From NCBI GenBank assembly GCA_963823555.1, contig CAWGMA010000004.1, positions 676,570 to 740,569 of the forward strand: a stretch of DNA of 64,000 nt, read 5' to 3'. Of the stretch, positions 12,019-63,996 are shown piece by piece (position 1 is the first letter of the stretch; every line of letters starts with the position of its first letter). Source of the stretch: Candidatus Eiseniibacteriota bacterium (GTDB taxonomy: Bacteria; Eisenbacteria; RBG-16-71-46; CAVPCR01). The notes beneath the pieces are model-generated. The model was not told the DNA's origin. It did not search any database and was given only the letters and a program-made list of their open reading frames with translations. Position numbers and translations under genes: made by a program.

Positions 12019-12670
12019 CTAGAACAGGCTCTTGATCTGACCCCAGGAGCTCGGCTCGACGGGCACCGGGTCATCGATGAACAGCCGGGCGTCGTCCCAG
12101 AAGATCGATCCGCCCTGAGCGCCGTCGACGTCGACCTTGACGATGACGGCCTGGGCATAGGCGGTGTTCGCCGGCGCGGGAGCCGTGCCGACGCCGAGGA
12201 GCGTCCAGACGTCCAGCGGCGTGGCGCCGCTGATCTGATTCGACTCGAAGACGTCGACGCCGAAGATGCCGCCGGCGGCAAGCTGGAAGTTCACATCGAG
12301 GAACTCGATCTTGTAGACGCCGAAGTCGACGTTGTCGATGGGATCGAGGCTCGAGTTGAGCGCGATAGATCTCGCCGACCCAGGTCTGACCGGGCACGGC
12401 CGGGAGCGCCTGCACGGCGCCGGAGCCGCCGCCCGGGGCGAAGGGCCCGAAGGTCTTGAGGGACTGCGATCCGCTGTGGAAGAGAGCCGCGGTGGTGAAG
12501 ACGTTGTTGAATGAACTCCAGTCGGCCGTACCGGGTACGTCACCGCCGGACGCGTCCGGCATCTCGAAGCCGGGGTTGAGGAGCTGGGCGGATGCCGTAC
12601 CCGCCATTCCCATCACGAGGAGAGACAACATGGCTGCGACGCCAACTGAGAAACGGTTGCGCTTGGTCAT
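12019..12670 (-). CDS. Secreted paralog of 10972-11886 ending in SSWGQIKSLF instead of the FlgD CTD (one frameshift near 12365)
   Basis: Near-identical passenger (QLLNPGFE.PDASGGDVPGTADW; VDFGVYKIEF; VIVKVD.DGAQ.GSIFWDDA), then DPVPVEPSSWGQIKSLF*. Confidence 0.75.
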
Positions 12671-12783
12671 GGCTCACGACGCCTTTCCGAGTTGAATCCA
12701 TCTTGGTCGGGCCGTTCCCGTCGCGGCCATCCGTGGATCATGGGCCGTCCCTGGGGCCGCGAGGATGCCTGCCCGACTTGACC

Positions 12784-12812
12784 TTGACATCCAGGGCTCC
12801 ATCATACACTAT
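12784..12812 (+). promoter_or_regulatory. Sigma70-type promoter TTGACA-N17-CACTAT
   Basis: Perfect -35 at 12784-12789 with 17 bp spacing, upstream of the ABC ATPase/GH1 operon. Confidence 0.65.
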
Positions 12813-12856
12813 GTTCGCCAGGCGAACAAAGCTCTTTTGTTCGGGGCGCGAACAAA
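12812..12856. promoter_or_regulatory. Two tandem ROK/XylR-type operators (TGTTCG-N5-CGAACA)
   Basis: TGTTCGCCAGGCGAACA (12812-12828) and TTTGTTCGGGGCGCGAACAAA (12836-12856), immediately after the -10. Confidence 0.7.
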
Positions 12857-12898
12857 GATCCAGCCCTGAGGCCCCGCTCAGGGTGCCAGGGAGACCAG

Positions 12899-62400: not shown

Positions 62401-62552
62401 GCGAGGGTGCGCTGACGCGCCTGCGCCCGGTGCTCATGACGGCGCTGGTCGCGAGCCTCGGCTTCGTGCCGATGGCGCTCGCGACCGGGACGGGCGCCGA
62501 GGTGCAGCGCCCGCTGGCCACGGTCGTGATCGGCGGCATCATCTCCTCCACG
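59444..62552 (+). CDS. czcA: CusA/CzcA heavy-metal efflux RND permease (frameshifted, 3'-truncated)
   Basis: [73 protein letters not shown], then homology stops. Confidence 0.9.
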
Positions 62553-63096
62553 AAGATCTCGCTTCCGTCCCCGCAGAGAAGGAAGCCGGTCGCCGTGGCC
62601 GCCACATCGTAGAAGTAGGAATCCACGGGGAGCGGGACCGGGTTCCAGCTCACGCCGCCATCGCTCGTCTCGAGCACCTGTTCGTACAAGCTGTTGGCGA
62701 CGCCGTGAATCGGGTCGCGGAAGTCGATCGCGTCGTAGCTTCCGCTCGCGGTCTCGCCCCCTGGTTCGAGCTCTTGAAGATCCCTGGAGAGCTGCCCACC
62801 GCGAGGAGCGAGCCATCCGGCATCGCCACGGCGCCGAAGAGATCGTTGGGGAACGCGTCCCAGTCGCTGAGGGAAGTCCAGTGCTCGCCCGCGTCGGTGG
62901 TGCGCAGCACCGCCCCCTCGACGCCGACCGCGATGACAGTCGTGGCATCGATCGCGGCCAGGGAGCGGATGGCGTTTCCCTGCGGTCGGGGATTGCCCCA
63001 GAAGAGCTCGTAGGCGCCGGCCGGAGCCTGGGCCCATGCGAGGATCATGAGACCCGCGGCGATGAGGATGGGGGTTCGATCTCTGGAAAGAGCCAT
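62553..63096 (-). pseudogene. N-terminal fragment of a secreted YCF48/BNR-repeat protein, truncated at the czcA junction
   Basis: Signal peptide; [35 protein letters not shown]; reads into antisense czcA. Confidence 0.7.
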
Positions 63097-63385
63097 GGCG
63101 TCTCCTCCGGGGGGTGCTCTGGCGCGGTTTCCGGGACCGGGGCAGAGGGGGCCATGTCTTCCGATTGGTCCTCATCAGCATACTGGCTCGGATGTGCCCG
63201 CGCCAGCTGCAGGCTTGCGCCGGGCGCAGCACCTCGGCTACTGTCCGGCCGCGTGCGCTGGTCCCGGATCGCAGCTGTTGGTCATTGCATCATCGTCCCC
63301 TGTCGGTTCCCGCAGCATCGGGACCAGCCAGACTGCGGAATACTAGCGTCCAGGCTTCCACAGGAATGAGATTGGGAGGTATGCA

Positions 63386-63996
63386 ATGATCGCCTCGAGT
63401 GCATGCGCGTCGACGAAGCACATCATCCTTCCCGTCGCTGTTCTGGGGGTCATCCTCTCGATGCTCTCCATCAGCCTGCCGGGGAGCGCCGCGGCCGACC
63501 TGCCCCCGCTTCCGACTCTGAGCGCAGCGTTGCGCAGTGCGGGCGGGCCGGTAGTTCCAGCGGCATGGGCTGGAGTCTGGGCCACCACCGATTCGGTGCA
63601 CCTCTGCTCCGACCCGACCATCCTCTTCACCGACTCGGGGCTCGATACCCTCTGCACCGGGGATCCGATCCAGGATGAGCAGGGCGGTATCACACTGAGC
63701 TGCAGCGGGACGGTCGACGACACCAGCGTGGACATCACCTGCACTGGGTCCAAGAACTCAGCCCGGGATGCACGGTCAATTACGAGACGACCATCGTCGC
63801 CACCCGGAACGGGGACAGCTATTCAGGTGCGCTCACGGTCAATGCCACGTTTACCCCTCCGCTTTGTGACGGCAGTCCCGATATCTGTATCGTCACGGAG
63901 TCAACCGGCACCCGGGTGGGACCGGAACCTCCGGATTGCCTCTCACCTGTCGAGGAAGGAACGTGGGGGAGGGTGAAGGCGGCCTACTATCGGTGA
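63386..63996 (+). CDS. Secreted Cys-containing protein ending in TWGRVKAAYYR (frameshift near 63760)
   Basis: Signal peptide; WAGVW; after the frameshift ..CLSPVEEGTWGRVKAAYYR*. Confidence 0.7.

Follow-up and report, generated by a model that had tools for sequence, protein, structure and literature searches.

Several kinds of C-terminal unit are known on exported bacterial proteins. In the PEP-CTERM/exosortase, MYXO-CTERM, GlyGly-CTERM and LPXTG systems it is a short terminal tag, present in many copies with near-invariant residues, and in the cohesin-dockerin system a modular unit docks non-covalently on a partner domain. Cargo of type IX secretion (the T9SS) carries a C-terminal domain (CTD) of 40-108 residues of beta structure (type A; TIGR04183 and PF18962, here FlgD_ig PF13860). 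According to PMC11969387, the shortest described CTDs have 40-55 amino acids (aa), three beta-strands and motifs B, D and E, and short CTDs exist in Prevotella. The cleavage consensus of PorU is given as X/(G,S,A)(V,L,I) in PMC4560394, and the lipoprotein export signal described in PMC5080379 is N-terminal and was defined in Bacteroidetes. Here we compare with these systems a C-terminal tail of 15 residues, the TWG tail, found in a window of 64,000 nucleotides from a Candidatus Eiseniibacteriota bacterium (GenBank assembly GCA_963823555.1, contig CAWGMA010000004.1, positions 676,570 to 740,569), the window being the whole stretch of DNA analysed. A first-pass annotation had proposed that six unrelated C-termini in it share an undescribed sorting signal, serving a second route of secretion or surface display beside FlgD-type CTDs. 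The tail motif is real, and its predicted reader is a lipoprotein, A, encoded outside the window.

Comparison with described signals

When 73 tails were searched against NCBIfam, Pfam and the PDB at E ≤ 10, no entry was found to cover the tail, and the few matches were single-member or linker-only; the possibility, allowed for in the first-pass annotation, that the signal was already catalogued thus found no support there. TIGR04183, PF18962 and PF13860 matched none of the 73 tails at E ≤ 10 and did not extend over the tail in any of 6 window and 68 genome carriers, and the dockerin repeat (PF00404 and relatives) gave no Pfam match in the 73 tails.

Like the T9SS CTD, the tail is C-terminal, stands on signal-peptide proteins at the same junction, follows a similar linker of small residue, Val and Glu, and occurs in genomes with SprA, PorU and PorV. 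Measured against the CTD as described in PMC11969387 (a beta-strand domain of at least 40 aa with motifs B, D and E), it was rejected as a CTD, being 15 residues long, a predicted helix and devoid of motifs B and D. It further differs in a proline before Val-Glu in 40 of 111 tails, in its small cargo and in its predicted reader, a lipoprotein of NTF2 fold. With the PEP-CTERM type it shares signal peptides and unrelated passengers, and it replaces PEP-CTERM-like ends on one passenger. The features named for tripartite signals in 10.1101/2023.06.07.544157 were all found, i.e. terminal position, many copies, three near-invariant residues, signal peptides and non-homologous passengers. Unlike PEP-CTERM-type signals, however, the tail has neither a transmembrane segment nor an Arg cluster, and no cognate protease was identified, although no search for exosortase was made; by pattern, the host genome has no PEP-CTERM-like tails. 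A dockerin is likewise a modular C-terminal unit, and the tail would similarly bind a partner domain non-covalently, but it is a single short peptide without the calcium-binding duplicated repeat and its predicted partner has an NTF2 fold. The tag works like a C-terminal sorting signal but does not fit the definitions of the T9SS CTDs, the PEP-CTERM type or the dockerins.

Position, consensus and occurrence of the tail

The six peptides are the sole matches to WG.[IVLM]K in six-frame open reading frames (ORFs) of at least 30 aa in the window, and all six were found at the coordinates given, about 8-14 residues before the stop, with the Trp 8-13 residues from it. The host genome (G000; 4.62 Mb in 4 contigs, 67% GC, 92.5% complete) contains 126 matches, 110 of them at most 16 residues from the stop compared to about 17 expected under uniform placement, and in 51 of the 126 the Trp is exactly 9 from the end. 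The strongly C-terminal placement was also seen in samples from elsewhere. A DNA pattern without an internal stop codon, searched in GTDB genomes, listed at least 121 stretches; of 80 distinct matches analysed among these, 76 were within 16 residues of the stop, including a spurious one with a stop codon inside, and one more was at 17. A search of 1.84 billion proteins with the tail profile returned 1361 at E ≤ 0.001; among the best 150 of these the motif was within 16 residues of the end in 144, and the longest had at most 514 aa.

With a profile hidden Markov model of the tail, 111 ORFs of the host genome scored at least 15 bits, none fell between 15.7 and 11.8, and the background did not exceed 11.8. 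The 111 include a few doubtful short ORFs and three carriers that are near-identical between the C2 end and the C4 start (G000:C2:715931-723060 and C4:565-8775), so that about 105-108 tail genes are distinct; the duplication suggests that the two contigs overlap. The fuller consensus reads (A/P)-V-E-(P/S/A)-x-(T/S)-W-G-x-(I/V)-K-(A/S)-x-(Y/F)-R-stop, in which the invariance of W, G and K is partly due to the selection of the seed set by these residues. A looser pattern applied to the 2860 other genes gave two variants, neither convincing.

Signal peptides were scored by one crude rule on all called genes of at least 120 aa. Of 89 carriers 77 had one, compared to 169 among 233 CTD proteins and 896 among the 2860 remaining genes, so that carriers are enriched in signal peptides, as the first-pass annotation had supposed. 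Its description of the tail as a short amphipathic helix held only in part: an AlphaFold2 model supports the helix, whereas the helical hydrophobic moment (0.313) is no higher than that of other C-termini (0.326) or of shuffled tails (0.327), so that in this respect the tail does not match an amphipathic membrane-targeting helix. The net charge is at least +1 in 97 of 111 tails. The position frequencies show no hydrophobic run and no basic cluster after one, in agreement with the reported absence of a transmembrane segment.

The tail profile matched 148 of 151 genomes of the phylum Eisenbacteria, where the upper per-genome counts are lower bounds (at least 55) and one tag-poor family has 0-4. 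That this family keeps a single core tailed protein was considered and rejected, several ordinary passenger families being seen instead. The tail also occurs in Krumholzibacteria, in Latescibacterota and in 10 of 10 genomes of a small neighbouring phylum, and was found in none of 81 Bacteroidota genomes. The GTDB matches listed are mainly from Eisenbacteria, Krumholzibacteriia, Latescibacterota and records titled Gemmatimonadota or 'bacterium'. The Latescibacterota tagged proteins seen (L049, L050, L062, L070, L076-L079 and others) are mostly of about 300 aa and look like one expanded family. Three of five pattern matches on IMG/VR viral contigs (L195, L197, L198) are C-terminal tails, one of them on a lipoprotein-like ORF; they may be host DNA or reflect use of the tag by phages.

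Passengers and exchange of ends

The 104 passengers of the host genome that had sufficient length for comparison fall into 63 similarity groups. Among 68 carriers, Pfam recognised some LTD, beta-helix, PKD, CHRD, PD40, LamG and DUF4397 domains, most remaining unmatched. The carriers are small, with a median of 247 aa and a maximum of 503; measured from stop to stop the median is 273 aa compared to 697 for CTD ORFs, and 162 of 261 ORFs with a terminal CTD exceed 600 aa.

For 24 of the 104 passengers there is a paralogue in the host genome with a FlgD-type CTD starting at the same junction, including the window pair 12019-12670 / 10972-11904. The window protein encoded at 51943 has 483 homologues, and of the best 120, with ends classed by pattern, 60 carry the TWG tail, 23 a PEP-CTERM-like end, 8 a dockerin-like end of Planctomycetota proteins and 29 another end, these last including some TWG or PEP variants; one homologue (P0106) matches PF00404. 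The tail and known sorting signals can thus take each other's place at one junction.

A linker similar to that of the tail precedes 68 of 217 CTDs compared to 62 of 1165 control windows. That the tail is part of the CTD linker was nevertheless rejected, as no full tail precedes any of the 266 CTD-bearing ORFs of the host genome; three loose pattern matches fall inside domains. Together with the lack of an Ig fold by sequence, this speaks against a truncated CTD, one of the explanations which the first-pass annotation had named as its own possible refutation; none of the refuting results named there was obtained.

Lipoproteins A and B

One family of lipoproteins carries several tails, 2-4 in tandem or one behind each of its two domains (P0121, P0133, P0136, P0130, P0218, P0122). 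The host genome has three tailed members of this A-type family (C1:1650359-1653512) and one without a tail, here called A (C2:173417-174361); among 40 A-type homologues 28 are tailed and 12 tail-less. A resemblance to the Bacteroidetes export signal (PMC5080379) was seen in the A-type lipoproteins P0274-P0313, where at least two acidic residues stand immediately behind the Cys in 20 of 25 tailed lipobox proteins compared to 0 of 12 tail-less ones. In a Foldseek search with the model of a tailed member (P0274), the best match had an E-value of 5.6e-5, 32 were at E ≤ 0.001 and those listed were NTF2/SnoaL-like; as modelled, the tailed A-type lipoprotein has an NTF2-like fold.

A is encoded behind a second lipoprotein of its type, B (the pair at G000:C2:173417-174938), which in turn follows the gene of a 663-aa barrel-like protein. 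The three form an unannotated, conserved operon (G000:C2:173417-177008, L199), upstream of which are ksgA-like and tatD-like genes. Thirty B loci, two of them identical in sequence, were fetched from Eisenbacteria, Krumholzibacteria and a third small phylum. A follows B in 29, the contig of the remaining locus being cut off within B, and the barrel gene stands before B in 29, the remaining locus having no upstream DNA. In the host genome B ends in SSWSLVKGENR, and an end of the form (S/T)W(G/S)x(L/I/V)(K/R) is found in 26 of the 30 loci; outside the cargo set only one of 3501 called ORFs shows this pattern, B itself. A usually has no such end. Of 62 genomes from lineages that bear the tag, 54 were found to have B.

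A and B belong to no Pfam or NCBIfam family and the B profile had no significant PDB match; the predicted reader is a member of no named family. The barrel protein gave weak Pfam barrel matches (E 0.001-0.07), no NCBIfam identity and no significant PDB match. ESM Atlas offered nothing usable for the tail and, for the lipoprotein, only unnamed clusters above 0.9. The literature searched, with subscription papers, supplements and unpublished models outside its scope, holds nothing on the tail or the lipoprotein pair.

Predicted complex of the tail with A

In AlphaFold2 models the tail has a predicted local distance difference test score (pLDDT) of 96 when fused to an A-type domain (P0274) compared to 62-69 on the window 51943 protein. 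Prediction of a complex between tail-less A (P0293, residues 30-219) and the tail of an unrelated cargo gave a score of 0.91, the best of three controls reaching 0.03, with a contact agreement between runs of at least 96% and a partner pLDDT of at least 68; of 157 solved pairs 116 reached the score mark used, as did 2 of 215 mismatched ones. The tail is predicted to form a short strand (Val-Glu) and a helix, its Lys meeting a conserved Glu, its Trp and Gly a conserved Asp, and its Ile and Tyr lying in a hydrophobic groove of A. The contacts of lowest error join W, G, I, K and Y, the conserved positions of the tail, with residues of A that include F93, E113, L120, L164, L166 and D215. These are conserved in distant orthologues of A, 21 of which have E/D at E113 (21/21), D/E at D215 (21/21), F/Y at F93 (20/21) and M/L/I at L120 (21/21); in a set of 36 B sequences the columns of F93, E113, L164 and D215 are conserved as well. 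Sequence searches of the PDB with the tail and with the B profile gave no comparable complex.

The resident secretion genes

Besides 261 ORFs with a terminal CTD, the host genome has genes for SprA, for a full-length PorU next to PorV and for at least six members of the PorV family. SprA exceeded the cut-off in 21 of 21 relatives and in 5 of 5 and 32 of 35 genomes with pattern hits. Two of the three misses had non-terminal chance matches, so that SprA is present in 32 of 33 genomes with terminal tail matches. PorU was found in the host and in 5 of 5 other genomes. The motor protein GldM was found in none of 11 Eisenbacteria and none of 8 other tag-bearing genomes, with working positive controls; GldK and GldL were not searched.

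Two further ideas were rejected. The one stand-alone PorV2-like gene, considered as a reader dedicated to the tag, does not track it: 33 of 33 Eisenbacteria have the gene, tag-free ones included, and it was not found at 1e-20 in three tag-bearing Latescibacterota. Loss of PorV does not account for the tag-free genomes, as G018, G069 and G141 retain 8-12 PorV-family matches.

Behind porU-porV in the host genome (G000:C1:700900-716100, L169) lie two genes for DUF5683-like proteins, one for an NHL-type protein, one for a protein of 1106 aa that matches SprA weakly, and a BamA-like gene; in 9 of 30 loci the gene that follows porV is conserved (E ≤ 1e-4). The extra PorV-family genes (G000:C1:976756, 2236059, 179747, 298254, 1798785) each neighbour a gene for a CTD-type protein of large size, in some cases along with a TonB-dependent-receptor-like gene, and it is possible from this arrangement that they are dedicated shuttle-cargo modules. 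A tandem cluster of about six CTD proteins of 1600 aa, with a partial match to the PorU model, was seen at G000:C1:491000-519100.

Carriers and neighbours in the window

Two of the window carriers are intact, two are frameshifted and two are probably short remnants (Table 1). The first-pass annotation had counted four full-length carriers with signal peptides; this applies to those ending at 41927 and 52641, whereas the carriers with tails at 12019 and 63996 have their signal peptides in another frame. An intact relative (L091) aligns across both frames of the former, and a paralogue aligns, weakly, across both frames of the latter. The ORF ending at 28305 continues the frame of a CTD protein after its stop codon, and in the ORFs ending at 28305 and 47102 (52-71 aa) the part upstream of the tail had no BLAST match at E ≤ 1e-3. 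The eight FlgD/T9SS-type CTD proteins reported in the window were all found; one CTD protein (37914-40067, plus strand) weakly matches the Omp28-related selenoprotein model NF045500 (E 1.8e-9, below the cut-off). A GH149 phosphorylase is split into three ORFs and a CusA-type transporter is in pieces (7322-10610, minus strand, and 59444-63013, plus strand); the assembly appears rich in frameshifts.

Table 1 Tail carriers and related features in the window
Position	Strand	Feature	Basis
10972..11904	-	Adjacent paralogue with the same passenger domain and a FlgD/T9SS-type CTD instead of the TWG tail (tail swap)	
12019..12066	-	TWG tail (VPVEPSSWGQIKSLF-stop) of the frameshifted gene 12019-12670	Motif, consensus, L091 alignment
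12019..12670	-	Signal-peptide protein in two frames, adjoining the CTD-bearing paralogue	74-76% identity over 87 and 94 aa
28147..28305	+	52-aa ORF without signal peptide, tail LAVDQTSWGSIKSIYR at 28255-28305, probable gene remnant	
41292..41927	+	Uninterrupted gene of a 211-aa protein with signal peptide and a weak match to CBM_4_9/NTTRR-F1; tail TAVDPSTWGTVKSLFVN at 41874-41927	
46887..47102	+	71-aa ORF without signal peptide, tail PTMQPTTWGAIKGTFHGP at 47046-47102, probable remnant	
51943..52641	+	Uninterrupted gene of a 232-aa protein with signal peptide and a CBM-like beta-sandwich; tail at 52579-52641	
63386..63996	+	Signal-peptide gene in two frames, tail SPVEEGTWGRVKAAYYR at 63943-63996	

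Discussion

The machinery behind the tail, left entirely unnamed by the first-pass annotation, can be narrowed to a candidate receptor, the predicted NTF2-fold lipoprotein A. We propose that the tail is a docking peptide by which A hands cargo to an outer-membrane exit. A small tagged protein would first be exported through the inner membrane, its last ~15 residues would then bind the groove on A, and A would pass it to the exit, most likely a motor-less SprA/PorV/PorU. The tail may mark either a second route of secretion or another entrance to this resident system. The cargo tails may copy the C-terminal helix of B, the groove of tail-less A being free for them, and A would be an adaptor rather than a permanent anchor. 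About 110 cargo genes are found to a single tail-less A gene in the host genome and the cargo has a ceiling of about 500 aa, both of which fit a transport adaptor. The docking step by itself is probable on the strength of the models, while for the whole chain we estimate a probability of roughly 0.45.

Several observations weigh against this proposal. The binding of the tail to A is a model confidence and not a measurement, and its calibration is only approximate because custom alignments were used. Tailed A paralogues supplied three rows of the tail alignment and 26 tailed homologues were in that of A, so that the model has possibly learnt a cis contact of tailed paralogues with their own tail. 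The tandem and internal tails of the A-type lipoproteins suit an anchor that binds no less than a signal for transport. In 8 of the 62 genomes of tag-bearing lineages, among them the 94%-complete, tag-free G069, no B was found, and several Latescibacterota and some Eisenbacteria have an A with a TWG-like tail of its own, which could fill the groove in those lineages. At the 13 loci of Latescibacterota type and from Bacteroidota that were checked, B has no barrel gene upstream of it. Moreover, 6 of 13 Bacteroidota without TWG cargo have the B-A pair, B there having SWSxLKxxF-like ends and A, where adjacent, being tail-less; the pair therefore has an older function of another kind and no specificity for the tag. 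In these 13 genomes all six with B lack GldM, six of the seven without B have it, and SprA is present in 5 of 5 B-positive genomes tested; this exclusion is not independent evidence, since it reflects one phylogenetic split. GldN was not found in a search that had no positive control, which also applies to the search for PorP. Finally, one genome (G156, the third SprA miss) has five tails without SprA, PorV or B; its tail contigs are of 4-10 kb with Eisenbacteria-like neighbours, and it may be a mixed or incomplete bin.

Both structure models, i.e. that of the tail on an A-type domain and that of its complex with A, would equally support a permanent non-covalent tethering of cargo to A-type lipoproteins, in the manner of dockerin and cohesin and without hand-over to a translocon. 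The tandem tails, or a tail after each domain, suggest avidity, and the exchange of the tail with PEP-CTERM-like and dockerin-like ends on one passenger and the proline in 40 of 111 tails, where PorU prefers a small residue (PMC4560394), point the same way. We regard tethering as unlikely all the same: it agrees poorly with the great excess of cargo genes over tail-less A, the paralogues have a T9SS-type CTD in the same place, and cargo, if it reaches the surface, would need an outer-membrane signal, for which the tail is the sole shared feature. In another explanation the tail is a T9SS signal reduced to a minimum, which a PorV-family shuttle or SprA would recognise directly and PorU would cleave in front of A-V-E, the likeness to the lipoproteins being incidental. 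The similar linker before part of the CTDs and the presence of SprA, PorU and at least six PorV-family genes speak for it. Of 111 tails 50 start with the PorU consensus (G/S/A)(V/L/I) of PMC4560394, 40 have Pro and 21 another residue, V/I/L is near-constant at the second tail position, and short CTDs are reported from Prevotella (PMC11969387). This explanation seems improbable to us, as a predicted 15-residue helix without motifs B and D is far from the described CTDs of 40-55 aa, the tail was found in none of the 81 Bacteroidota, and the PorV2-like gene does not track the tag.

Another exit is conceivable: the 663-aa barrel, whose gene stands with those of B and A, might form a system of its own that does not need SprA. 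The recurrent order of barrel, B and A across three phyla, the protein's weak barrel matches without NCBIfam or PDB identity and the size ceiling of the cargo would suit it; the barrel gene is not adjacent in tag-bearing Latescibacterota, however, and SprA tracks the tag in nearly all genomes with terminal matches, and we consider this exit very improbable. Membrane binding without a protein reader is known from the membrane-targeting helix of MinD and the anchor of PBP5, which the tail may resemble. A predicted helix with Trp, Ile and Tyr/Phe and a mostly positive net charge could bind membrane or lipopolysaccharide in this way, but its hydrophobic moment is unremarkable, the conservation of W-G-x-I-K across phyla is tighter than such binding needs, and a protein groove with matching conserved residues is predicted, so that we give little credence to a purely lipid-binding tail.

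The docking proposal can be put more broadly, and tentatively, as an undescribed export signal with its receptor. Several uncultured phyla related to the FCB (Fibrobacterota-Chlorobiota-Bacteroidota) group may have copied the latch helix of B onto tens to more than 100 small proteins per genome, which tail-less A would feed to the surface, serving SprA-type translocons without the GldM motor. The candidate receptor makes the idea testable without culture, with one small soluble domain and one synthetic peptide, and if binding is tight, the 15-residue tag and its 190-residue partner could become a useful docking pair. The occurrence of the B-A pair together with SprA in GldM-less Bacteroidota bears on T9SS-like translocons outside Bacteroidia. 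The tag is found on about 3% of the called genes of the host genome, in nearly every genome of the phylum and in neighbouring phyla, and being so widespread, it could allow the exported proteome of these uncultured bacteria to be annotated by rule.

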